Positions 7,557-51,344 of a stretch of 52,341 bases of DNA are shown piece after piece. Numbering within the stretch: the first letter of the stretch is position 1; the number at the start of each line of letters is the position of its first letter. Both the position numbers and the translations under genes were made by a program. The stretch lies in IMG/VR virus record IMGVR_UViG_3300013126_000013, one strand, 5' to 3'. The notes beneath the pieces are model-generated. The model was not told the DNA's origin. It worked only from the letters and a program-made list of their open reading frames with translations, and ran no database searches. The stretch comes from a virus. Lineage: Duplodnaviria; Heunggongvirae; Uroviricota; Caudoviricetes.

Positions 7557-7865
7557 TTACCACTTTACCTTATCGGCCCAATACGCAGCAGACATTTTGC
7601 CCTTTGCAATATTCTTTGCATGACGAGCTTTAAACGACTTACGTTTCGCTTTCATACGAGCTGACTCACCTTCTTTTGGTGCACCAGCAGTCTCTGCGCC
7701 TTGTTCACCAAAGCGAATTGTCTTTACTTGATCGCCGTCCTTGGCGACCACGATGTGACTCTTTTCTGGATGAGAAGGTGTTGCCTTTGGCTTATTGAAA
7801 CCCTGGACACCGGCTCTTACGAGGCGAGGATCTTTCTCTTCTATGAACTCTCTGAAACCCTGCAT
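7557..7865 (-). CDS. Basic small protein with a capsid-targeting-like N-terminus
   Basis: Starts MQGFREFIEE; ends KSFKARHAKNIAKGKMSAAYWADKVKW. Confidence 0.7.
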   Translation of the reverse strand: MQGFREFIEEKDPRLVRAGVQGFNKPKATPSHPEKSHIVVAKDGDQVKTIRFGEQGAETAGAPKEGESARMKAKRKSFKARHAKNIAKGKMSAAYWADKVKW

Positions 7866-7866
7866 C

Positions 7867-8457
7867 TTATCCTCCGAACTCGTGGCCAGCAACACGACGC
7901 ATCTGCTTGTTGAACTCTTGTTGTGATGGCTTTTCTTTGTAAAGCTTGATCGAGATTTCTGGGCGTTCTTTACCTTTAATACGCCAGTTATAACCCTTCT
8001 CTTTATGCTCGGCTGAAGTAGTTTTTACAACACGACGTTTGTAGCCAGCTTCCCATGATTCAGCTTCGTCAAGATCAACTTCTTCAGTCTTGTTGTACTT
8101 CAAAGCATGAGCAGCTTTCACTTCGCGATCAGCTACCTTATCCATTGCTTTACCGGCATACTTCCAACGTTTATCAGCTTTAGCTTTGTTTTTGTCTTGA
8201 AGCGCGGCTGATGCATAGTCTCTTAGCTTTTCAGTTGATACCTCGTCGATCTGCTCGACTTCTTCTTGAGCGCTTCTAATTGCTTCTTTTGAAGGATACC
8301 CTTTATCTCCAGGTTTCGCGGGTGTCTCTCCACGTTTTCTCTTCGCGTGAATGTTAGTCCATAGGCCGTTGCCTTCTGTAACTTCGGTTGAACACTCATT
8401 ACAGCAATTAGGGGTACCACAATTTGGATGTTCAAGGAATAGCTTAAATGATTTCAT
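7867..8457 (-). CDS. Modular probable head-internal protein
   Basis: Starts MKSFKLFLE; short modules separated by VTE, IDE, LDE. Confidence 0.7.
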   Translation of the reverse strand: MKSFKLFLEHPNCGTPNCCNECSTEVTEGNGLWTNIHAKRKRGETPAKPGDKGYPSKEAIRSAQEEVEQIDEVSTEKLRDYASAALQDKNKAKADKRWKYAGKAMDKVADREVKAAHALKYNKTEEVDLDEAESWEAGYKRRVVKTTSAEHKEKGYNWRIKGKERPEISIKLYKEKPSQQEFNKQMRRVAGHEFGG

Positions 8458-8762
8458 AACTTACTCTTTTCTGCTTTGTGCGCCTGAGCTGCTTCCATTG
8501 AGTCAAACTCTTTGTGGTATGAACGATCGGCGTTATGTACTGCGTATGTTGCTTTCTTTGGAAACTTGTTGTAGACTTTAGTTACGCGAAGATCTGAAGC
8601 TTCTTCGAGGCGGCGAGCTTCTTCTGCCTCCAGCATACGAACCATTTGTGTCTGACGCATGTGGTGTGCTTCGTTTACACCGCGAGATAGATTGCGCTGA
8701 CGGCGATGAAAGTTAATCGCTTCAGAGAGTTCTTTATCTAATAGTTGTGTTACTTCTGTCAT
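8454..8762 (-). CDS. Hypothetical protein
   Basis: Open frame in the same operon, ATGA-coupled to the next gene. Confidence 0.65.
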   Translation of the reverse strand: MTEVTQLLDKELSEAINFHRRQRNLSRGVNEAHHMRQTQMVRMLEAEEARRLEEASDLRVTKVYNKFPKKATYAVHNADRSYHKEFDSMEAAQAHKAEKSKL

Positions 8763-8773
8763 AATTGGTATCC

Positions 8774-9034
8774 TTATTCTGCTGAATCAAAATCTTCTTC
8801 GTCGGCCATCTCTGACTCCATATAATCAGCAGCACCTGTGATGTAGTCTGTGGCAAGAACGATGTTGGCGATCACATGGCCTGGAAGTTCATCATCATCC
8901 TCGAGAAGAGTATGCAATCTTTTTGCCGCAGCAATAATCATTCTCAACTGAGACTTGGCCATGCCGCCTTCTTGGCCGTATTCACCATCGTTCTCGTCTT
9001 TGGCTTCAGCCAGCATTTCTTTAAAGCTTTTCAT
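8774..9034 (-). CDS. Acidic small protein with a capsid-targeting-like N-terminus
   Basis: Starts MKSFKEMLAE; EGGMAKSQL...LP.HV...ATDYI...DYM. Confidence 0.7.
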   Translation of the reverse strand: MKSFKEMLAEAKDENDGEYGQEGGMAKSQLRMIIAAAKRLHTLLEDDDELPGHVIANIVLATDYITGAADYMESEMADEEDFDSAE

Positions 9035-9043
9035 GATTACCTC

Positions 9044-12000
9044 TTAGTACTTAATGACTGGATTCGGCGTTGAGAAATTCTTCTTACGCATGATGGTCTT
9101 TGCTACGATGTCGATCTCATCATTCTTTTCGTCGTACTTGATTACGACTGGCATGTTGAGGTCTGACTGAAGATCTTTTACTACAAGTTCAGCACCGGCT
9201 TTTCCCTTAAGAGGGTTGCCGTTCTTTGCATAGATCTTTTTGATCAAATCTGCAAGTTCTTTAAGCTTAATCTTTGGTGAGTTGCGATCATCATTCATAC
9301 GCTCACCAAAGTGTTTAGTGAACTCAAAGTCAATCTTGAATTTCTCGAACATACGATCGACAAACTTTTCGAAGTCTTTCATCTTTGATGCGGTGATTTC
9401 AACATCAGCTTCTTCTGACAAAGAACCTTCAACTTCCATCAGAGCTTCAAAGGCCTCGTTGATGCCATCAGTGATCTTTGGCTTCTTTGGTGTACCCTTT
9501 TCGCCGGGAGTTGCGGCTTTATAATTCTGAACAAGAGTATCTGTATTTTCAAATCCAGCGCCATATGCTTCATAGTAAGCTCTAAAGTGCTTCATCTTTT
9601 TTGCACGCTTAAGAGCTGCATCGATGTGCTTTTCGACATGATCTTCATCGCCATCGTTTGATTCTGGCGGAATCACTGGAGTAGGAATAGCCTGTTCAAA
9701 TGCTACACCTTTACGGGTGTGCTTCTTTTCGCCGGAATATTTTTTAAGTAATTTTTTCGTATCAGCAGGGTCGCCAATTGTCTCGTCTGGGGCCGCGTAT
9801 TTAAAATCAAACTCATCTACATCACCATCGAGATCTGTATCAATGTGTTTAACATTATCTTTGTACTGATGTTTGAATGGAACACCGATACCAAGGTGAT
9901 GCTTCACCGACATCTTATCTTCTTTTACGGTCTTAGCCGACGCTATCCAATCCTTAGCAGCTGGGTTTGTTGGAAGAACCTTTGCCCACGTGCTGATCTT
10001 ACGATACACGCCAGTGACTGCACCTTCGAAGTTAGATCCTTCGGAGTTGTCGATGATATACATGCGGTTGCCGAAGAAGTTCTGGAACTTACCAAGGTTC
10101 TTCTGTACACCGTTCCACATCGTCTCGACTTCTGAGTCTGGAAGCGAGCGAGCGCGCAGACGGTTACGAGTCTTTGCGGTGGCGAGGTCGGTGTTAACAA
10201 AGATCATTGCAACTTCGTAGCCAAGCTTCTTTAGTTTCTCAGCTTGCTTCTCGATCTTGTCGTAGTCTTTACCGGTTCCGTCGATTACGAGACCAAGACG
10301 ACCATTCAGTGCAAGATCTTGCTTCTTCGCCGTAAGAGCTTTTGCTTCACCACGAATCTCTTGACCCTTTGCAGAGTAGATGTCTTCTGGGGTTGCCTTA
10401 AGTCCTGCCTTTGCAAGTGCTCTTTCGAAGATATCGTCAGAGTTGATCACTTTGAATCCGAGTGCAGTCAATGCGGTCTTACCTACGATGAACGACTTAC
10501 CGGATCCTGGGCCACCTGCAAGGAATACTGCCTTGAAGATTGATGGGTCGTTAACACCTTCATCAAGTAATGTTTCAAACAAATCGTCTGCAGATTCTTT
10601 AATGCCGTGCATGTCACGGTACTTACTTGCCAACTGACGACCAGTCAGGCCAATATCGTAAGATTTTGCGATATCGAAAGCGTATGAGTTTAGGCTTGAA
10701 CGATTGCCCTTTGATTTGTAGAGTCTATCAAGTGCTTCAAGCGCTCTCTTCATTATCACTTCAGTTGGTGATGGAAAGTGCTTATCTTCCTTCAGACCTT
10801 TTGCAAGGTCTGCGTCTGCAGTTGTGCGAGTCTTACCGCCAGTGATGAACGAATTGACACGTGCATATCCCCACTGTTGCGGAGTAGTTCCTGGACGATG
10901 ACCAGTTCTCCACGCAGCAACACCACGGTCAAATACTTTCTTCAGAGTGCCGTACGAGATGCCAGACTTCTCGGCTTTTTTCTTAAGACCTTCCATTGCC
11001 TTTGCTTCGTCGAGATTAATTGAGTTATTGATATCTTCTGCAATCATAATCATTTCGAGAAGATCTGCATCATTCTCTACTTCGATTTCTTCTTGACGAA
11101 CAATATGGCGGAATGCACGGAAACGGCGATCATATTTAAGCGATCCATCTCCATTATACATCATGTGATAACGGCGAGTATGGACAGATGGCTTCGTCTT
11201 AGCAGTAGCATCTCCAGGTGCAGGCTTATATGCAGCTGGATTATCGTCGTCCATCTTTGCATGTTTATTGAAGTGAGCTTTACGCTTTGTTGCAGTCGAC
11301 TTACTTAGACCTGCATAGTAGTCTTCATCAAGGAAAGACTCGAACATCTGATCGATATCCTCTTTCTGCTGGTGCAGCGAAGCAACTCTTTGTAGTTCAG
11401 CCTTGCGTACCTTTGGAAGAAGTCGAGCAGCGATCTTCGCAATTGCGCCTTTTCTCTTCTCGACTTTTTGATCGATCATGATCTTTTCTGAAGGAGAAAG
11501 GTCTGCGTAATTCGCGCCTCGCTCACCTGCTACTCTTTTACGGATAAGTTCAATTGCTTTCTTACGTGCTCTCACTGCAAGCTTTTGATTCGAAGCAATC
11601 CGATTCTTTAATCTCTCACGAGCCGCTTCCATCTTGCGCTCGTACTTTCTCATTACGAGAGCGCGCTTTCTACGCTGGGCATATGAGAGAACATATTCGT
11701 CAAGCTCAACATCTTCTGATAGTTTCATACCAGCTCTTACCATATCGTAGATGTCTTGAGCATGTGATTGAAGCTTCTTTGGAAGGCCGGATTTAAACTT
11801 TTCTTCTTCACCCTTCGAAGCGGCATCTCTCATCTTCGATGCCGACATGCCTTCAACACCATCAGCATCAGGATCTCTTTCACCTGCAGAAACAACGGCG
11901 ATTGATTTCATCGTGTAGTCTTTACCGTTGTACTTGTTAAGAAGAGTTTCAAACTCTTGTACGCGATCTTGTCCAACCACAAGCGTAACATCATCATACT

Positions 12001-12334
12001 TCGACTGAAGTTGTTTCATGAGGTCAATGATAGTTTTTGCAGGTGAAGACTGAATGATACTGCCAAATGCTTCTTTGGCAATCATGACTTTATCAGAATA
12101 TGAAAGTGGATTCTTTTTTGCGTCTTGTGACTGGCTCAAGTAAATTTCGGCTTTGCCACCGATTTTACGAGCAACGTCTTGAACCTTTTTCACTAGCTTT
12201 TCATGACCAATCGTAGGAGGGTTCATTCTTCCCCAAGAGATAACGACTTTTCTCGATGAAGCTTCCTTAAGAACTGGATTTACTTCAATAACGTTCTTGT
12301 TAAGCTTCTCGTCCTTTTTAGACTTCTTTTCCAT
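9044..12334 (-). CDS. 1096-aa multidomain polyprotein: HIGH-family nucleotidyltransferase, basic modules (DUF5824-like), P-loop kinase, C-terminal putative RNase fold
   Basis: GRMNPPTIGH (aa 35-44); AGGPGSGKS (aa 606-614); TKHFGERM (aa 1006-1013); domain boundaries marked by LDE/LKE/VKE/LSE. Confidence 0.85.
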   Translation of the reverse strand: MEKKSKKDEKLNKNVIEVNPVLKEASSRKVVISWGRMNPPTIGHEKLVKKVQDVARKIGGKAEIYLSQSQDAKKNPLSYSDKVMIAKEAFGSIIQSSPAKTIIDLMKQLQSKYDDVTLVVGQDRVQEFETLLNKYNGKDYTMKSIAVVSAGERDPDADGVEGMSASKMRDAASKGEEEKFKSGLPKKLQSHAQDIYDMVRAGMKLSEDVELDEYVLSYAQRRKRALVMRKYERKMEAARERLKNRIASNQKLAVRARKKAIELIRKRVAGERGANYADLSPSEKIMIDQKVEKRKGAIAKIAARLLPKVRKAELQRVASLHQQKEDIDQMFESFLDEDYYAGLSKSTATKRKAHFNKHAKMDDDNPAAYKPAPGDATAKTKPSVHTRRYHMMYNGDGSLKYDRRFRAFRHIVRQEEIEVENDADLLEMIMIAEDINNSINLDEAKAMEGLKKKAEKSGISYGTLKKVFDRGVAAWRTGHRPGTTPQQWGYARVNSFITGGKTRTTADADLAKGLKEDKHFPSPTEVIMKRALEALDRLYKSKGNRSSLNSYAFDIAKSYDIGLTGRQLASKYRDMHGIKESADDLFETLLDEGVNDPSIFKAVFLAGGPGSGKSFIVGKTALTALGFKVINSDDIFERALAKAGLKATPEDIYSAKGQEIRGEAKALTAKKQDLALNGRLGLVIDGTGKDYDKIEKQAEKLKKLGYEVAMIFVNTDLATAKTRNRLRARSLPDSEVETMWNGVQKNLGKFQNFFGNRMYIIDNSEGSNFEGAVTGVYRKISTWAKVLPTNPAAKDWIASAKTVKEDKMSVKHHLGIGVPFKHQYKDNVKHIDTDLDGDVDEFDFKYAAPDETIGDPADTKKLLKKYSGEKKHTRKGVAFEQAIPTPVIPPESNDGDEDHVEKHIDAALKRAKKMKHFRAYYEAYGAGFENTDTLVQNYKAATPGEKGTPKKPKITDGINEAFEALMEVEGSLSEEADVEITASKMKDFEKFVDRMFEKFKIDFEFTKHFGERMNDDRNSPKIKLKELADLIKKIYAKNGNPLKGKAGAELVVKDLQSDLNMPVVIKYDEKNDEIDIVAKTIMRKKNFSTPNPVIKY

Positions 12335-12390: not shown

Positions 12391-13071
12391 CTATTTATAG
12401 TTTTGCTGAAATGAATCGATGAATTTGTAGTTTACAGCAGCCGACTTACTCCAAAGCGTCGATTCACGAAGCCAACCAATAGCTGGAGTTGGATCCATAA
12501 TTGCAAGAGGAGTAGCAGTAATTCGTTGATGCCGAATAAAATATGCGTTATCGATACACCCAAGAATACCCTTGGTTTCTATTTCTTTCACCATCGCTCT
12601 TGCAGTATTTGGAGTCAACGCATATGCATGAGCTCCTTCATGCGCGTCTAATTCTCTTACACCCTGAGGAGGACCTGCCTTTATGTGGTCATATCTTGAA
12701 GTATCTGTTAACTTATAGCCGAGTACTACGATTCTATCATCTGGTATATCAACGCTTGGATTGTGCAGCATGATTGCATCATGTTCGAGTACCACTGCTG
12801 CCTCATTACCGTCTGCGATCTTTTTCCATATTGCTGCATGACCAGCAGAACAACATTGTGGATTATTCGGTCTTGTATCGTGTTGAAATAAATGAAGAGT
12901 AGCTGTATTGATCTTAGTTTTTGACCAAGCATCATAAACGGACATGTTCGAATAACCTTCGAAATACTCCCAATCTAATCCAACTGCTTCACAGGACTTA
13001 GCACAAATCCTTGCGTACTCTCTTGATATTGGATTATCAATCGTTAAAATATAAGCTCTAGTTGGTTTCAT
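12391..13071 (-). CDS. Glycosyltransferase family 25-like
   Basis: RAYILTI...WEYFEG...CCSAGHAAIW..I......VVLEHDA...GAHAYALTP..A...ID; start taken at MKPTR. Confidence 0.75.
   Translation of the reverse strand: MKPTRAYILTIDNPISREYARICAKSCEAVGLDWEYFEGYSNMSVYDAWSKTKINTATLHLFQHDTRPNNPQCCSAGHAAIWKKIADGNEAAVVLEHDAIMLHNPSVDIPDDRIVVLGYKLTDTSRYDHIKAGPPQGVRELDAHEGAHAYALTPNTARAMVKEIETKGILGCIDNAYFIRHQRITATPLAIMDPTPAIGWLRESTLWSKSAAVNYKFIDSFQQNYK
12392..12399 (-). promoter_or_regulatory. T4-type late promoter
   Basis: Exact TATAAATA 58 nt upstream of the polyprotein start. Confidence 0.8.
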
Positions 13072-13615
13072 ATTCGATAAGGGCCATCTGCACTGGGTTA
13101 TTATGATAAGCATACTTGTATGTTTCTACAATCTTAAATCCTTCACACGTAGAAGCGTATGCGCTTGGTACACCATACATCGCAAAGTCGTCGATAAGAA
13201 TGTTTTTCAACTTCAGATGTTTAGCCATTTGTATATCATTGATTGCGCCATGTACACTGTGATCGCCATCGATGTTAATAATATCTACACCTTCTGGAAA
13301 TTGAAGAGTGCCATTCTTAAGACCTTTATAGTAATCTACAGTATTCATTTCAATATAGCTGAAACGATTTCCAAATTTTTCTTTCAGAGATTCAACCGCT
13401 ACCCGAGTATAAGGATGAGCTCCAATATCAATAGAGGTGACCTTTACATCTTCAAACATCGTCATAATGATAGCAGCCGAATGACCCGCATTTGTACCGA
13501 TTTCAAAAATATGTTGAAAGTTTGTGCGAGCTTTAACATCTTTCCAGAGATTAAGAACCTCAGTAGATGGTGTCATGTGGCCTTCAGTCGCGTGAGGCAA
13601 AAATGATAAATCCAT
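13058..13615 (-). CDS. Class I SAM-dependent methyltransferase (Methyltransf_24-like)
   Basis: IFEIGTNAGHS (motif I), VTSIDI, INIDGDHS, ILIDD. Confidence 0.8.
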   Translation of the reverse strand: MDLSFLPHATEGHMTPSTEVLNLWKDVKARTNFQHIFEIGTNAGHSAAIIMTMFEDVKVTSIDIGAHPYTRVAVESLKEKFGNRFSYIEMNTVDYYKGLKNGTLQFPEGVDIINIDGDHSVHGAINDIQMAKHLKLKNILIDDFAMYGVPSAYASTCEGFKIVETYKYAYHNNPVQMALIEYETN

Positions 13616-13629
13616 AATAACTCCTTCAT

Positions 13630-13658
13630 AAAACAAAAGGAGAGCCGAAACTCTCCTT
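13630..13658 (-). terminator. Intrinsic terminator
   Basis: AAGGAGAG-tttcgg-CTCTCCTT followed by TTGTTTT on the minus strand. Confidence 0.75.
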
Positions 13659-14207: not shown

Positions 14208-15500
14208 TTAAGTAACTTCTTGCCAACTCATTGAACCAAGTACATCATCTCCAGAACCATTTGAACAACACGCTAAGGTAAATGTGAAATAAGTCCCAGT
14301 AAAACTGTTTCTCTCTAACTGGTACTTAAATAAATCACTTTGTGAAGGAATTGATCCGGTTGATTGCGAAGTCGTAGCAAAATATCCTGTATCCGTATCT
14401 TCACCGCCGCTCATTGCTGTGCCAGTGATATTATATTGAACGTTACTATCAGCTAAATCAACCCAAGTGCCAGCCGTGATTGTTGCGTCTTTTGTTAATT
14501 TATAACGATAGTTGCCGTTAGTCACCCCAAGTAATGAAAAACTTGTAGGTATTACTATACAATCTGGTGTAGTCGATTTTAATCTAATAGAGATGATTGG
14601 ATAAAATGTATTTGCGGAAGTTAGATCTCTGGCTGCATTTGTCGCTAAACCTAATGATCTAGATCTGCCACGTATCTCGTATCCACCTTCTGAAATTACT
14701 GTTGAACATACTTGTTTAAGTGTTGAATTTGATGCAGTTGCTCCAATGTTTTCTATCTCAAACCTTAATGGTAAACACGCAGTGGTAATATATGTCGTCG
14801 TGATTATGTTTGAGTGATGAAAACTGTGACAATGTACAAAAGCACCGTTTATAACAAAGCCCATTCTAACAGTGCCTAAGCCCAACCATTCTAAATCTGT
14901 GAACAAAATCTGTGCTTTAGATATATCTAAGGTAAGACCACTTGGTCCAGTACCATCAAGTTTATCAATATTCCAATCGGCCTTTTCAGCAATAGTGTTA
15001 ACGACACTACCGGTCACTGAACTACGTTCTACAAAGCGAATATTCGATCCATTTAATTCAAGGTAGTGCCCATTGTTGGTGCCATAATATCCAACACGTT
15101 GTCTTAAATTGGCCTTTGCCGCATTCATTACAAATGTTGTTAAGATCAGTAAACTTTTACCTGGCTGATAAGCAAATACTCTTTTTGATTCTCTGTATAC
15201 ATAGTCACCAGATGCTGTACCTATGCTAAGATCTACAAGTCCTTGATCAGAGTTAAACGTAGCTGTGCTACTGCCGCCAGCGGTTGCTGTTGCAAACTTG
15301 CCATTATCTGAATACCTATGAAAGCTATCGAACAATGTAAATGGATTTGAAACTCTTGCTCGGCCAAACGCATCAACTGCAACACCAGTTGGGTTCGACG
15401 AGCCAACTAGATTACCATACTGATCGGCTAACATTACTGTTTCAAACAGCGTCTTATTATCACTGGTGTACTGATGAGTATTTTTGTTAAACTGTGCCAT
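14208..15500 (-). CDS. Beta-rich probable virion structural protein
   Basis: Starts MAQFNK (TAATG overlap); DAFGRARVSNPFTLFD, YQPGKS, WLGLGTVRMGF; Thr/Ser/Gly-rich. Confidence 0.65.
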   Translation of the reverse strand: MAQFNKNTHQYTSDNKTLFETVMLADQYGNLVGSSNPTGVAVDAFGRARVSNPFTLFDSFHRYSDNGKFATATAGGSSTATFNSDQGLVDLSIGTASGDYVYRESKRVFAYQPGKSLLILTTFVMNAAKANLRQRVGYYGTNNGHYLELNGSNIRFVERSSVTGSVVNTIAEKADWNIDKLDGTGPSGLTLDISKAQILFTDLEWLGLGTVRMGFVINGAFVHCHSFHHSNIITTTYITTACLPLRFEIENIGATASNSTLKQVCSTVISEGGYEIRGRSRSLGLATNAARDLTSANTFYPIISIRLKSTTPDCIVIPTSFSLLGVTNGNYRYKLTKDATITAGTWVDLADSNVQYNITGTAMSGGEDTDTGYFATTSQSTGSIPSQSDLFKYQLERNSFTGTYFTFTLACCSNGSGDDVLGSMSWQEVT

Positions 15501-16732
15501 TAACGCTGCCATCCTTTGATAATTTCAGGCGAAAAGTTTGCACGGCTAAACTGAAGTCGATCGACTAGTTTTACTGCATTTTTGCCCATGTGATCGATTA
15601 CAACAAATCCTTCTTGCTCTGTGACTTTATAGCCATCAGCAGTTTTAAGGAACGTTCCAATCTGTTTTGCTTTATCTAGTTTTCGTACAATGAGATGCTT
15701 GGCATCAACAATGAGATTATACATATCAAAGATTTTCACAATTTCAGTTTTAGGTGTATTTGCGAAGTACTTCATGACTTCAGCACGTTTCGCTTCACCT
15801 GCGGCCTTTGCCTTATCTGTTGCTTTCTTATCGATCTCTTTCTGATAGAAGTCATGCACGTACTTCGTAAGACCATCGACAAACTGAGTTGTATTACCAA
15901 TACGTTCGCCGACTCGCACCTTTGAGTTAATATATGCTTTTACTCGAATGAGCAGATCGTCATTGTCAGAAATACCATCAAGAGAAGATCTCTTCAAGCC
16001 AGAAAAGATCTTTCCAGCTTTCGACAAGAGTTCAGTAATTTCTTTCGTTTCAGCGGCGTTGAAGTTTGCCGAACCAGAAACGTCTTTATAGGATGCATCT
16101 ACTGACCAGACCGATTTTGTTTTCTTGAGGCCGCTTGCGATCTCCTCTCCAAAACTCGCTGACATTGATTCAAAAGAGTTTCCTCTGTATGTAGTGTGCC
16201 AGACCACACCGATTCTTGAGGCAAGGATTTCACGAGCAAGTTGGCTGTTCTTCGGTATCGCGTAAACAATCGTGTTAGGATGGAAAGTAATATACGGTTC
16301 TCCATCAATATCCACTTCTCGTATATCTTCTTTCGAATATAAGAAGTCACCTTGCACCACTCCTGTAATGCCGAGCTTTGAAAGTTCTTCAAGAGCAACT
16401 TTCAGCTTAGCGTTCAAATCACCTGATGTATCTGCATCAATATCAGCTGGTGTCTTATACACCTTTGGGTCCTTATTGAAGATACCCTTCTTTGCCACAA
16501 AGAATTTACCATCGCTTGGATCAATGCCGGCAAAGACTGCAGGAGCACCATCCCACTTGATCGTTACGTTAACAGACTTTGCAGAGCTTCCTGCTAGCAT
16601 GTCACGAAGAGAACGTAGATAGTTAATAGATTGACGAACACCTTCGACGCCAGCATTTAAGATGTTATCCTCGAGATGCTCCATGTGAGTGTTCTTTGAT
16701 TCTACGAGAAACCGGTCGAATGATAGCATCAT
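15500..16732 (-). CDS. DUF6267-like protein with covalent nucleotidyltransferase (ligase-like) motifs
   Basis: KNTHMEHLED N-terminus; TIKWDG (motif I), VQGDF (III), EQEGFVV (IV), VKLVDR (V). Confidence 0.7.
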   Translation of the reverse strand: MMLSFDRFLVESKNTHMEHLEDNILNAGVEGVRQSINYLRSLRDMLAGSSAKSVNVTIKWDGAPAVFAGIDPSDGKFFVAKKGIFNKDPKVYKTPADIDADTSGDLNAKLKVALEELSKLGITGVVQGDFLYSKEDIREVDIDGEPYITFHPNTIVYAIPKNSQLAREILASRIGVVWHTTYRGNSFESMSASFGEEIASGLKKTKSVWSVDASYKDVSGSANFNAAETKEITELLSKAGKIFSGLKRSSLDGISDNDDLLIRVKAYINSKVRVGERIGNTTQFVDGLTKYVHDFYQKEIDKKATDKAKAAGEAKRAEVMKYFANTPKTEIVKIFDMYNLIVDAKHLIVRKLDKAKQIGTFLKTADGYKVTEQEGFVVIDHMGKNAVKLVDRLQFSRANFSPEIIKGWQR

Positions 16733-17334
16733 ACTTTCCTTACTGATCCGTCATGGTGAACGTGATATGCCTCGAACGATATGTCCGGATACTGCTTTGC
16801 AAGAGCCTTAAACATCGTAATGTTTGACATCGCGTCATCAAAGAAGCGTACTCTCTCGTACTCTCCCTTGCGTAGATATTTATGGAATATGAAGCGTTTG
16901 TTCTTTGCGCTCGATCCTAGACCTAAGTTACCAGCTCTTTCAACATACACCTTATCTATATCTATTCCATATCTACGGAATGTGTCAAGGAACTTTTTCT
17001 TATCGTCGAAGTCCGATCTAGCAGTCACGATAATAACTCTAGACCCAGCATTTACCGCATTGCGTATAATTGCTTTTGCCTTTTGAACCATCTTCATGAT
17101 AGGAACAGAGGTATTCTGGAAGATCTCAGCTGAAGTAAATTCACCGAAGTCGTATGACTCGCCATCCTTAAGCTTATATGTATTAAAAGCTTGGTTATCA
17201 AGAGACTGAACTACTTTTCCGTCCTTCACTACCTTAACTAAAGCCTTAGTCTGAAAAAGTGTCTCATCTATGTCAAAGATCGTTAGACCTTTACCACGAG
17301 CTTGTTCTGTTATAAACGACTTAAATGATAGCAT
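16729..17334 (-). CDS. HAD-superfamily phosphatase
   Basis: IFDIDETL (DxDxT), IVTAR, K, FFDD; starts MLSFKSFITE. Confidence 0.85.
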   Translation of the reverse strand: MLSFKSFITEQARGKGLTIFDIDETLFQTKALVKVVKDGKVVQSLDNQAFNTYKLKDGESYDFGEFTSAEIFQNTSVPIMKMVQKAKAIIRNAVNAGSRVIIVTARSDFDDKKKFLDTFRRYGIDIDKVYVERAGNLGLGSSAKNKRFIFHKYLRKGEYERVRFFDDAMSNITMFKALAKQYPDISFEAYHVHHDGSVRKV

Positions 17335-18416
17335 TATGATACAACCCTAAATTTAATGTCGTTTGGATACTCACCACCCTTTGAGTTTCGAATCTCAATA
17401 AGATATTTTTGATGAGCGTTTTCGCAATGAATGCGAGTTGATTTCGATGTGATTCCTGGATAGTCGATTCGTGTCACTTTTATGCTTTGAGATAACTCAT
17501 CGAGTTTAGCACGGTCGAGCCAGAACACTTTCCAACCACCAGGTTTTTTACGAACATAGAAGTAGTTCAAGCCCCATACTTGCTCAAAGATCTTTTGAAT
17601 TTTTGAGGAATCTACCGCAGGGGTCTTGAATTTCTTGCGAGTATCAGGATTGATATTATTTCGGATATCAAACCCGCTTTGAACTTTATTCAGATCAACT
17701 CCAAATGTACGAAGAAATTCTGCGCCTTCAGAATCTTCGACAAGATCACCCTTTGAATTGAATAAACTTTCACCGCCCGGCCACGCACTTACAGTTGCAC
17801 CGCTTATATCCTTAAGCGAGATGTACCATTTCTTTCCTGTGCTATCAGTAAGAACGATATCGCCAATAACAGCATTCAAATCTTCAAGTGGTATACCAGT
17901 CTTTCGTGTCGATCCCTTGCGCTGATTTACTTTTACAATTTCCGTATTTGCGAATGGTGGGTAAGCTTCTTCCATCTGTCTTACGAGCTTAACAAAGCTT
18001 TGTTCAGACGCGCCCATGAAAAACATATTGAGGTTTTCAACTGTTTTAGTCTCGAAGTTTTCACCTTTGTTTGCCCCGCGAGCAATGACAGCATCAACGA
18101 TTACACCCTTATAGGTAAACGTATAGCTTGGGTATTTTGAACTGTTCGGAGATATATCGTTGTATTTAGCGTCGAAGATCTTATTACCGCGTAAACCAGC
18201 TTTCAGATGAGCTACAAATGATTCAGATGTATCAACGGTCTTTACGATCAATTGCATTCTGAATTCGCGCGTAGTTTTATCTTTACCAGCCTTTCCCATC
18301 GGCAAAGCTGGCGCCACTTGATAGTTCTTGTTTTTCCCGATATTATTCAAAAGATCGGCGATCTCTTTATAAACATCAGATTTTGATTTAGCAAAGCTAG
18401 AAAAGGGCTTAACCAT
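17334..18416 (-). CDS. Putative PD-(D/E)xK-family nuclease
   Basis: KGENFE helix, then IGDIVL and YISLK (D...SxK variant of the catalytic triad). Confidence 0.55.
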   Translation of the reverse strand: MVKPFSSFAKSKSDVYKEIADLLNNIGKNKNYQVAPALPMGKAGKDKTTREFRMQLIVKTVDTSESFVAHLKAGLRGNKIFDAKYNDISPNSSKYPSYTFTYKGVIVDAVIARGANKGENFETKTVENLNMFFMGASEQSFVKLVRQMEEAYPPFANTEIVKVNQRKGSTRKTGIPLEDLNAVIGDIVLTDSTGKKWYISLKDISGATVSAWPGGESLFNSKGDLVEDSEGAEFLRTFGVDLNKVQSGFDIRNNINPDTRKKFKTPAVDSSKIQKIFEQVWGLNYFYVRKKPGGWKVFWLDRAKLDELSQSIKVTRIDYPGITSKSTRIHCENAHQKYLIEIRNSKGGEYPNDIKFRVVS

Positions 18417-18440: not shown

Positions 18441-18448
18441 TATTTATA
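18441..18448 (-). promoter_or_regulatory. T4-type late promoter
   Basis: Exact TATAAATA 25 nt upstream of the 18416 start. Confidence 0.8.
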
Positions 18449-49700: not shown

Positions 49701-50618
49701 TTAAGATTTACTAAATTTGTTTAGCGATGCGACGTAAGCCGAAACCGAAGGATCGAGTACAGGAGTTTTTACTTCTTCTACTTCCTCTTCAAGGACTTCT
49801 GCTTGATCTTCTGCACGAACAACTTGCTCGGTGAAGTATGATTCTTTGATGGTTTCAAGCTTCTTTGCAAAGTCATCAACTGACTCATAAGAAACACCTT
49901 CTGCAAGAACCTTAAAGCGCTCTGCATCAGTAGCTACCATGCCTTCAGTGAAGTGTGCAAGTGCTGCATTCTTCTGAAGCTCTTCTTTTTCTGCACGCTC
50001 TGCAAGAAGCTCTTCGAATAGAGCATTGTACTTAGCGTTTGACTGAGCAACTTCTTCTTCCATTGCAGCAAGTGCTTCAAGCTCTTCGTCTGCAACTTCG
50101 ATATTATGATCTTCAACAAGTGACTTAAGACCAGCGATGATCGACTCAGCTACTTCAACTTTGTAGCCAGACTCAAGAGCGACTTCGTTTTCTTTCATCC
50201 AGTTCTCAACTACGTAGTCAAGGTATGAATCAACTTTGTCGGTAAGGTCTTCTACAATCGCTTCAACCTGCTCAGCAAGATCAGCTTCGAACTGCTCTTC
50301 AAGCTCTGCGCGGGCTGCTTCTACTTTCTCGTGAAGTGCTGCTTCAAAAATAGTAGTAGTCTTAGTCTTGAAGTCTTCGGAAAGATCTGCATCACCAAAG
50401 ATAGCTTCGATCATTTCATGAAGACCGGCATTGTTGCTACCCTGTGGGGTCTTAACATTCTTTTCAATGTTGTCTGCTTGTGCAGTCGAGTCAGATTTGA
50501 AAGCATCTGCTTTGCGCTTTTTTACAGCGCCGCCAGCTGGTGTAACTGGATCGGCTGACATGGAGTCTTCGCCAGTTGCTTTTGCTTCTTCTAACCCTTT
50601 TTCTAGATTTACATCCAT
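49701..50618 (-). CDS. 22: Prohead core scaffold (T4 gp22)
   Basis: LSEDFK.K...IFEAA, VD.YLDYVVE.WM.EN, KL..IKESYF, M/V..Y...L. Confidence 0.92.
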   Translation of the reverse strand: MDVNLEKGLEEAKATGEDSMSADPVTPAGGAVKKRKADAFKSDSTAQADNIEKNVKTPQGSNNAGLHEMIEAIFGDADLSEDFKTKTTTIFEAALHEKVEAARAELEEQFEADLAEQVEAIVEDLTDKVDSYLDYVVENWMKENEVALESGYKVEVAESIIAGLKSLVEDHNIEVADEELEALAAMEEEVAQSNAKYNALFEELLAERAEKEELQKNAALAHFTEGMVATDAERFKVLAEGVSYESVDDFAKKLETIKESYFTEQVVRAEDQAEVLEEEVEEVKTPVLDPSVSAYVASLNKFSKS

Positions 50619-50684: not shown

Positions 50685-51344
50685 TTACATGCTCTTTAAG
50701 AATTTTTCGAACATCTTTAAAGCAGCGGCTTCATCGATCTGCTTCGATTTTTTTACTTCTTCTTCAATTTGATCAAATGTGTTTGCCACTGTCCATGAAG
50801 AAGCCGCAACGTCGTAGATCCATTCTACGCCTTCCATGATACCTTTTACAAAAGCATCTGGAGCTGAAGGATCTGCGACAATATCACCTGCCGTAGCAAG
50901 CATAAAGTCATTTTGTACTTCCATGATGCCCTTTTCATTTGGCTTCACAGATCCCATTCCACGGGAAGAAATTCCTAATTGCGCACCACTATCGATAAGT
51001 CCTTTTACGACATCACCCATAGGGGTTTTAGTAATTTTAGCTCTACCTACAACGTTCGAACCATCAGCTTTTAATTCTGTGAATAGGTGTGAAACTCTGT
51101 CGAGGTTAATAGTTGGTCCTTGTGGGTGACCAAGTTCACCAAAGGCGCGATTCTTCGATACATAGTTTTCATTGTAGCGATTCATTTCGCGCATTAAAAC
51201 GTTTGATGGGTAAATACGACCATTACGGTTCTTAATATCACCCTGCATGATGATACCTTCGATGTAATAGTTCTTTTCACCCTTTTCGGTCGCTTCAGTA
51301 ATATAATGAACTTCTTCGACAATATCTTTAATGAGTAAGGCCAT
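50685..51344 (-). CDS. 21: Prohead protease (T4 gp21)
   Basis: YIEGI.MQ...KNRNGR.YP, AFGELGHP.GP.INL.RVSH, LG.SSRGMGS, DIVADPSAPDAFV.GIME. Confidence 0.97.
   Translation of the reverse strand: MALLIKDIVEEVHYITEATEKGEKNYYIEGIIMQGDIKNRNGRIYPSNVLMREMNRYNENYVSKNRAFGELGHPQGPTINLDRVSHLFTELKADGSNVVGRAKITKTPMGDVVKGLIDSGAQLGISSRGMGSVKPNEKGIMEVQNDFMLATAGDIVADPSAPDAFVKGIMEGVEWIYDVAASSWTVANTFDQIEEEVKKSKQIDEAAALKMFEKFLKSM

Follow-up and report, generated by a model that had tools for sequence, protein, structure and literature searches.

The stretch of DNA analysed here, hereafter the window, comprises 52,341 nucleotides of T4-like phage DNA (Caudoviricetes; IMG/VR record IMGVR_UViG_3300013126_000013) with genes for a capsid protein (gp23-type), a scaffold (gp22-type) and a protease (gp21-type). 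The gene under study is an open reading frame (ORF) of 1096 amino acids (aa) on the minus strand at 9044-12334, whose product (123.1 kDa, isoelectric point (pI) 9.3) is proposed to be a packaged precursor that the head protease would cut at multiple joints. We give this reading a probability of about 0.6. A preliminary description of the DNA had already suggested a targeted polyprotein cut at its domain joints, and every computational test which was run (promoter, linkers and their position, conservation, standalone modules, a homologue in virions) agrees with it, so far as sequence comparison reaches; the proposal is partly supported. The ORF described there, of about 123 kDa, is real, with the strand corrected to minus, since a plus-strand reading of the same positions is broken by stop codons throughout. 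A ribosome-binding site, AGGAG, lies 8 nt 5′ of the ATG.

The protein was laid out from family scans together with an AlphaFold model from 58 homologues (mean predicted local distance difference test, pLDDT, of 65.5). Behind a Lys-rich leader there follow a nucleotidyltransferase (CT), an Arg/Lys-rich helical module (HEL), a module M3 with the N-half of DUF5824, the DUF5824 C-half, a small helical module (M5), a P-loop kinase (KIN), a module M6 and a C-terminal domain (CTD), as listed in Table 1. The pI is 9-10.5 for CT, HEL, the DUF5824 C-half, KIN and CTD. The nucleotidyltransferase, both helical modules, the kinase and the C-terminal domain had been recognized before and were recovered; what had been taken for two DUF5824-like modules are two halves of this family, matched weakly by Pfam over residues 337-395 and strongly over 453-509.

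Targeting, cleavage, ejection and a cellular role are what we infer from these data, and they would proceed in the following way. The ORF would encode a capsid cargo precursor (internal or ejection proteins), organized as a chain of cassettes, each of which has a short protease/targeting peptide and a module. After late transcription of the gene, the 123-kDa chain would enter the prohead core via the Lys-rich leader and/or internal amphipathic peptides resembling the T4 capsid targeting sequence (CTS). The S77 protease would cut after Glu at exposed [L/I/V]-x-E joints, the most secure of which are at 24, 207/213, 443, 592, 805 and 960/967. The small acidic linkers would then exit the head, the mostly basic modules of 8-24 kDa would stay with the DNA, and these modules would enter the host together with it, the enzymes being present before phage gene expression. 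Delivered CT and KIN would plausibly counter NAD-depleting or RNA-cutting defences.

Candidate cleavage sites at the joints

The T4 protease gp21 cuts after Glu within L/I-x-E (PMC9026906). All tripeptides which had been listed for the 1096-aa protein are present at their residues, namely LKE24, LSE207, LDE213, LDE337, LDE443, LKE516, IKE580, LDE592, VKE805, INE960 and LSE974. The whole protein has 16 [LI]xE against 10.1 expected (P 0.036), 12 LxE against 5.5 (P 0.007) and four LDE against 0.4, the last comparison being post hoc. The case rests on motif position and conservation and not on such raw counts. Structure prediction had been suggested as a check, and the segments with pLDDT below 50 (1-24, 210-216, 323-338, 408-438, 517-521, 579-595, 802-823 and 949-977) correspond to the proposed joints, M6 itself being poorly modelled. 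These low-confidence linkers hold 11 of the 16 [LI]xE, where 4.2 are expected (P 0.001; composition-matched shuffle within linkers and domains separately), and the folded domains have few internal sites.

Conservation was read from the 120 closest homologues, counted without phylogenetic independence: E24 is invariant (118/118), as is P20, with Leu or Ile in 111 of 118 at P3, the third residue before the bond; E207 is kept in 110/111, E213 in 118/118, E443 in 111/120 and E960 in 80/82. Each of these conserved Glu sites has Leu or Ile two residues earlier and variable flanking positions. The leader thus ends in L/I-x-E (L22-K23-E24) and the same phage has an S77 gene, that is, both the motif and the enzyme gene are found.

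This enzyme is the gp21-type protease which had been assigned in the window beforehand, and the family scan confirmed it as Peptidase_S77 (Table 1). Its site preference can be judged from other head proteins of the window. The scaffold has 14 [LI]xE where 5.6 are expected (P 0.0002), and the gp23-like protein shows F-L-T-E|A just ahead of its Pfam domain; both observations point to a protease that has retained T4 specificity.

Shuffled modules and targeting peptides in relatives

The protein belongs to a family of 9127 clusters at 50% identity (E <=0.001). Among cultured phages the closest relatives are HTVC008M (Pelagibacter), Melnitz (Methylophilales) and phiM12 (Sinorhizobium). Their multi-module homologues include phiM12 gp159 (leader-CT-HEL-CTD; 603 aa, about 67 kDa as uncut precursor), the product of Melnitz gene 18 and HTVC008M gp130. 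Whether homologues shuffle modules at the same joints had been named as a further check. Seven modules occur in 74 different orders among 264 relatives; sites are kept before CT, KIN and M6, are weaker before HEL, the DUF5824 C-half and CTD, and are absent before M3. One profile was built per module, and for upstream logos the 12 residues ahead of every occurrence were collected, the start of M3 serving as internal negative control; at any fixed position, [LI]xE has a background of about 1%. Ahead of KIN, across 111 distinct contexts, the residue at P1 is Glu in 87%, P3 is Leu, Ile or Met in 90%, P7 is Phe in 47% and P1′ is Gly in 100%. The corresponding values are 97% (P1 Glu) and 89% (P3 Val/Leu) before M6, and 87% (P1 Glu) and 80% (P3 Leu/Ile) before CT. 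P1 Glu and an aliphatic P3 accompany these three modules regardless of the module upstream. Of the 134 family members with the leader, 124 have it ahead of CT and 10 ahead of HEL.

In T4, the CTS reads M-K-T-Y-Q-E-F-I-A-E, of which residues 4 and 7 act in targeting and residues 8 and 10 in processing (PMC9026906). With Asp in place of the Glu before the bond, T4 processing is blocked and targeting is not (PMC9026906). The heptad [FYW]-x-x-[FLMIV]-[LI]-x-E has 11 copies in the 16.5 thousand residues of the window. Four gene products near the ORF carry it at residue 4 or 5, where about 0.05 would be expected by chance; two more copies are joints of the 1096-aa protein, ending at 337 (F-E-S-F-L-D-E, 331-337, the C-terminal end of HEL) and at 592, and one is in the scaffold.

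Three of the modules are also found as standalone genes with a T4-type peptide that ends at the same bond. For CT these are Melnitz_18 (M-K-K-F-S-E-I-I-E|A), S-CREM2 ORF154 (M-K-N-F-S-S-F-L-T-E|A), P0244 and P0264; for KIN they are Melnitz_118 (M-K-T-F-A-E-L-Q-E|G), HTVC008M gp129 (M-I-P-F-I-L-K-E|G) and the metagenomic P0215 and P0254; for CTD it is gp42 of Paraglaciecola virus GD1 (GD1_42, M-K-S-F-E-Q-Y-I-E-E|Q). A similar exchange is visible in a neighbouring gene of the window. The last module of a 196-aa protein (7867-8457, minus) follows an internal E-E-V-D-L-D-E linker (LDE131), whereas the related contig L005 encodes this module (94% identity) as a gene of its own, of 75 aa, with the N-terminus M-L-S-F-V-E-Y-L-N-E. 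Homology between the two starts at the residue after Glu in both, and therefore internal joints and N-terminal targeting peptides are evolutionarily interchangeable. With its E-E-V-x-x-D-E linkers the 196-aa protein is a small polyprotein in its own right, and L005 (13407-15634) arranges the parts otherwise, in a 666-aa chain with six linkers.

The conserved joints bear on a second explanation, by which the protein is packaged and treated like T4 Alt: its leader, perhaps with a C-terminal piece, would be removed and a multidomain chain of about 120 kDa ejected in one piece, while L-x-E inside it would be relics of fusion or uncut helices that bind the scaffold. We regard it as rather unlikely, for P1 Glu at 87-97% before KIN, M6 and CT spans many unrelated upstream contexts and the joints lie in exposed, low-confidence linkers, although trimming of T4 Alt, a large cargo, is confined to the ends (PMC9026906), F-x-x-[FL]-L-x-E peptides within the chain look like targeting peptides and could serve binding, and conservation is imperfect at several internal joints. 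Little more than an accessible L/I-x-E is required by T4 gp21 (PMC9026906), and therefore an exposed site within the prohead would be expected to be cut.

Late transcription, virion detection and evidence to the contrary

A T4-type late promoter motif, TATAAATA, precedes the ORF (Table 1). The window has 11 copies of it against 1.9 expected (5.7-fold); among them are copies directly 5′ of the gp21-, gp22- and gp23-like genes and, at 18441-18448, 5′ of the operon starting at 18416. The motif is likewise found 5′ of the homologous genes in L005, in Melnitz (at the operon start) and of S-CREM2 ORF154. At the level of the motif, the ORF is predicted to be transcribed late.

Evidence from virions comes from the literature on cyanophages. 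ORF154 of S-CREM2, called a cytidylyltransferase, is 33% identical to CT (E 2e-27) and combines a late promoter, a T4-type targeting peptide and detection by mass spectrometry in CsCl-purified virions (PMC10665884). The same authors report cytidylyltransferases and kinases to be frequent in cyanophage virions (PMC10665884). Unlike the polyprotein, ORF154 (286 aa) consists of one module and lacks a kinase or any other. As a side observation, its gene lies directly 3′ of the gene of the late-transcription sigma factor, with a terminator-like hairpin and TATAAATA between them (S-CREM2, L004 3052-3609).

Several observations weigh against a packaged and joint-cut precursor, besides the relatedness of the homologues that were counted. 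The first concerns targeting: the N-terminus has no T4-type CTS of about 10 residues and begins with the conserved 24-residue Lys-rich leader, ending N-P-x-L-x-E, so its targeting role is assumed. The leader is absent from 34 of the 228 CT-bearing relatives (about 15%), in which the enzyme domain comes first, and therefore capsid targeting is either not universal or achieved by other means. These leaderless relatives (P0122, P0130, P0133, P0182 and 30 others) are multi-module chains which mostly keep [LI]xE near their joints.

The second concerns the sites. The density of [LI]xE is ordinary, with 1.5 per 100 aa as against about 1.2 in other proteins of the window, the DNA polymerase being alike. 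Weaker joints precede HEL, the DUF5824 C-half and CTD, with P1 Glu at 46-63% and one-residue slips of register; before the DUF5824 C-half, P1 is Glu in 63% and P3 is Leu in 50%, again with slips in the alignment. E337 is kept in only about one third of the close homologues, where the Glu is shifted by one residue, and F331 is invariant; LKE516 and IKE580 fall in M5, which is rarely present. Before M3 most relatives have G-T-Q-P-A-K and no protease-type site, and therefore the figure of about eight effectors given in the preliminary description is to be taken as an upper bound, the joint before residue 339 being no conserved site in relatives. A conserved L-x-E just before a domain could also belong to the fold of that domain rather than mark a cleavage site.

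The third concerns virions. The S-CREM2 authors caution about carry-over of abundant proteins, and the detection of ORF154 consists of 3 peptides (PMC10665884). In phiM12 the homologue gp159 is annotated as 'hypothetical protein' and its neighbour as 'virion structural protein', a label which may mean that gp159 was not detected in virions.

Some of these observations would suit a multifunctional cytoplasmic enzyme, for example a fusion for NAD salvage or RNA repair, that does not enter the capsid at any stage and whose L-x-E are incidental to acidic linkers. Apart from the missing leader in 15% of relatives and the ordinary motif density, it could draw on the position of the gene near replication genes in HTVC008M, Melnitz and phiM12 and on the names of relatives at JGI, adenylyltransferase/kinase fusions. 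It appears improbable to us in view of the late-promoter motif here and in relatives, the T4-type targeting peptides on standalone homologues of three modules and on neighbouring genes, the homologue found in virions, and the conservation of P3 and P1, which far exceeds the background of about 1%.

Enzyme modules, known systems and neighbouring genes

CT matches Pfam CTP_transf_like weakly (E 0.0013, below the gathering cut-off) and the PHROG 'cytidyltransferase' strongly (7e-91), and its predicted fold resembles NadD/NMNAT (TM-score about 0.6). The motifs T41-I-G-H44 and S164-A-S-K-M-R169, which mark nucleotidyltransferases of the alpha/beta phosphodiesterase superfamily, are nearly invariant. 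In KIN, G-G-P-G-S-G-K-S, D633, D685, R723 and R727 are invariant; the top TM-scores (0.71-0.73, root-mean-square deviation 3.6-3.9) are to the Pnkp kinase of Clostridium thermocellum and T4 Pnk, and zeta toxin and adenylate kinases reach similar E-values. Sequence searches of CT and KIN against solved structures gave weak matches only. A role in RNA-end repair is attractive, considering the Pnk-like KIN and a neighbouring HAD phosphatase-like protein that matches a polynucleotide kinase PHROG, and a NAD-related role for CT is equally open.

The catalytic motifs also bear on an explanation in which the protein is an accessory of core or scaffold, whose basic helices would help to build or size the prohead core and then be degraded to peptides leaving the head, with no delivery of active enzymes. 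T4 core proteins are known for multi-site cutting with loss of fragments, and HEL is a long helical module. The explanation is very unlikely in our estimate, as the motifs of CT (T-x-G-H, S-x-S-x-x-R) and KIN (P-loop, Asp, Arg) are intact and nearly invariant, few sites fall inside folded domains, and a CT homologue persists in mature virions.

M6 contains DTDLDGDVDEFD at residues 832-843, as had been noted, and the EF-hand identity then suggested for it was rejected, the Pfam EF-hand_8 match having an E of 0.074 only. The loop has Leu where the canonical loop of the PROSITE EF-hand pattern presumably disallows it. It is better described as an acidic loop of the DxDxDG type (D-x-D-x-D-G-D-V-D, residues 832-840; window 9827-9853, minus), present in 65 of the 264 relatives, and it may bind metal. 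HTVC008M gp133 ends with a similar loop.

The 1096-aa protein had no match in the NCBIfam scan, megablast of the gene at 9044-12334 against phage records gave none, and a protein atlas search with CTD returned unnamed viral clusters only. The DUF5824 C-half is also found in small non-T4 phages, namely Roseobacter phage CRP-831 (H75) and Salinibacter phages (H76-H101); it occurs in 117 Salinibacter phage records. In one of the small non-T4 phages it underlies a gene whose annotation is major capsid protein, and a general association of the module with capsids may exist.

[quoted passage not shown] Their genes are late, their CTS has an aromatic residue at 4, a hydrophobic residue at 7, Leu or Ile at 8 and Glu at 10 and is removed by the S77 prohead protease; the diverse, basic cargo enters the cell with the DNA, and cargo genes are highly plastic between related phages. 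Each T4 cargo protein has one module and one targeting peptide, whereas here up to eight modules per chain have predicted protease-type joints and a different leader. The earlier view that only single-site processing is known goes too far: in T4, gp22, gp67 and gp68 are broken down into numerous fragments, and Alt is trimmed at its two ends (PMC9026906). These three core proteins likewise have many L/I-x-E for the same protease, and the gp22 homologue of the window is strongly enriched in them. They are, however, structural helices whose peptides mostly leave the head, in contrast to the enzymes and domains considered here, which are folded and contain few internal sites. A further parallel is offered by the ejection and inner-body proteins of phiKZ, 201phi2-1 and SPN3US, phages in which a diverged gp21 homologue cleaves numerous head proteins after Glu, at redundant sites in long propeptides; that cleavage strips propeptides off single mature proteins, and separation of several functional modules is not described there.

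Polyvalent proteins, presented in 2017 for phages and for conjugative elements, are another multi-domain precedent. Iyer et al. described chains of many unrelated, conflict-related domains predicted to be packaged in capsids, delivered with the DNA and released by proteolysis, and drew an explicit analogy to the polyproteins of RNA viruses (PMC5512222). The present protein, with about eight modules, a late operon and a 'virion structural protein' neighbour, falls within their range of two to fifteen domains. Their release is ascribed to an embedded metallopeptidase (MPTase) domain, whereas Pfam, PHROG and NCBIfam scans of the whole protein and of its unassigned modules detected no peptidase family here, though modules of low confidence could hide one. 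Processing would here be in trans, by the head-maturation protease at joints resembling targeting peptides, and the domain repertoire differs.

The concept is not wholly new, since its parts are already known: the targeting sequence, processing by gp21, sets of internal proteins that are plastic, and cutting at multiple sites. In the literature we found no account of cargo cassettes with targeting peptides being concatenated and separated in trans by the head protease in T4-like phages. A general cassette grammar in T4-like phages of oceans and lakes, for which we see even odds, would combine peptide and module either as standalone genes or joined in any order, with the head protease doubling as polyprotein processor and the capsid delivering a changeable enzyme kit before phage genes are expressed; the kit would include the NAD-type nucleotidyltransferase, the polynucleotide-kinase-like enzyme and small basic modules associated with DNA. 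Should the chain really be cut and delivered, the T4 capsid-targeting system would go beyond the loading of single small proteins and be a modular delivery platform which evolves by fusion and splitting of cassettes at the protease site. This would account for a class of giant, unannotated ORFs that is very abundant in aquatic myophages. Pre-packaged metabolic and RNA-repair enzymes would join the counter-defence tools of the first minute, and the linkers and targeting peptides would be natural means by which T4-type heads could be loaded with several proteins. Cultured phages in which the idea can be tested directly are phiM12, Melnitz, HTVC008M and S-CREM2.

Table 1. Modules of the 1096-aa protein and other features of the window
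Feature	Residues	Position in window	Strand	Remarks
Leader	1-24	12263..12334	-	Lys-rich, ends N-P-V-L-K-E; pLDDT <50; putative propeptide/targeting signal cut after E24
CT	25-207	11714..12262	-	NadD/NMNAT-like nucleotidyltransferase; T-x-G-H and S-x-S-x-x-R intact
Acidic linker	208-213	11696..11713	-	flanked by tandem LSE207 and LDE213; pLDDT <50 at 210-216
HEL	214-337	11324..11695	-	Arg/Lys-rich helical; net charge +17, pI 10.5
M3	338-443	11006..11323	-	DUF5824 N-half with acidic insert; ends I-N-L-D-E443
DUF5824 C-half	444-516	10787..11005	-	Pfam E 2.7e-19; pI 10.3
M5	517-592	10559..10786	-	small helical, in few relatives; ends with CTS-like F-E-T-L-L-D-E (586-592)
KIN	593-805	9920..10558	-	P-loop kinase, Zeta_toxin/AAA_33
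M6	806-967	9434..9919	-	poorly modelled; VKE805 before, INE960 and LME967 after
CTD	975-1096	9047..9412	-	C-terminal domain, phrog_14518
Late promoter motif		12392..12399	-	T4-type, TATAAATA, 57 nt 5′ of the ATG of the ORF
gp21-type prohead protease		50685..51344	-	Peptidase_S77, E 3.6e-34; proposed processing enzyme
gp22-type scaffold		49701..50618	-	T4_CASP, E 3e-59; positive control for protease site preference
Downstream small genes		7557..9034	-	targeting N-termini M-K-S-F-K-E-M-L-A-E and M-Q-G-F-R-E-F-I-E-E, or internal E-E-V-x-L-D-E linkers
Targeting-peptide genes downstream		8774-9034 and 7557-7895	-	heptad present; 7557-7895 counted from internal Met
DUF6267 protein		15500-16732	-	upstream; N-terminus M-M-L-S-F-D-R-F-L-V-E
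HAD phosphatase-like protein		16729-17334	-	upstream; 201 aa, D-I-D-E-T; N-terminus M-L-S-F-K-S-F-I-T-E; PHROG named polynucleotide kinase

Among the neighbouring genes, the heptad in the product of 7557-7895 counts from an internal Met, which suggests that the true start lies 30 nt downstream of the listed GTG. The HAD-type protein together with the Pnk-like KIN hints at a packaged RNA-end-repair set. The DUF6267 protein has an invariant K-W-D-G resembling ligase motif I, and its identity as an RNA/DNA ligase, with which an RNA-repair kit would be complete, was unconfirmed: Foldseek gave no match below E 0.1, with several ligases and capping enzymes among the weak rows, and VIA-align returned helical-bundle matches only (Z <=7). 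Some public gene calls of this protein (394 aa) begin at Met16 and are thus without the targeting peptide. Directly upstream of the polyprotein gene, the late cargo operon includes a family-25 glycosyltransferase-like and a methyltransferase gene (12391-13636, minus), which have no targeting peptide and are conserved as a pair in L005.

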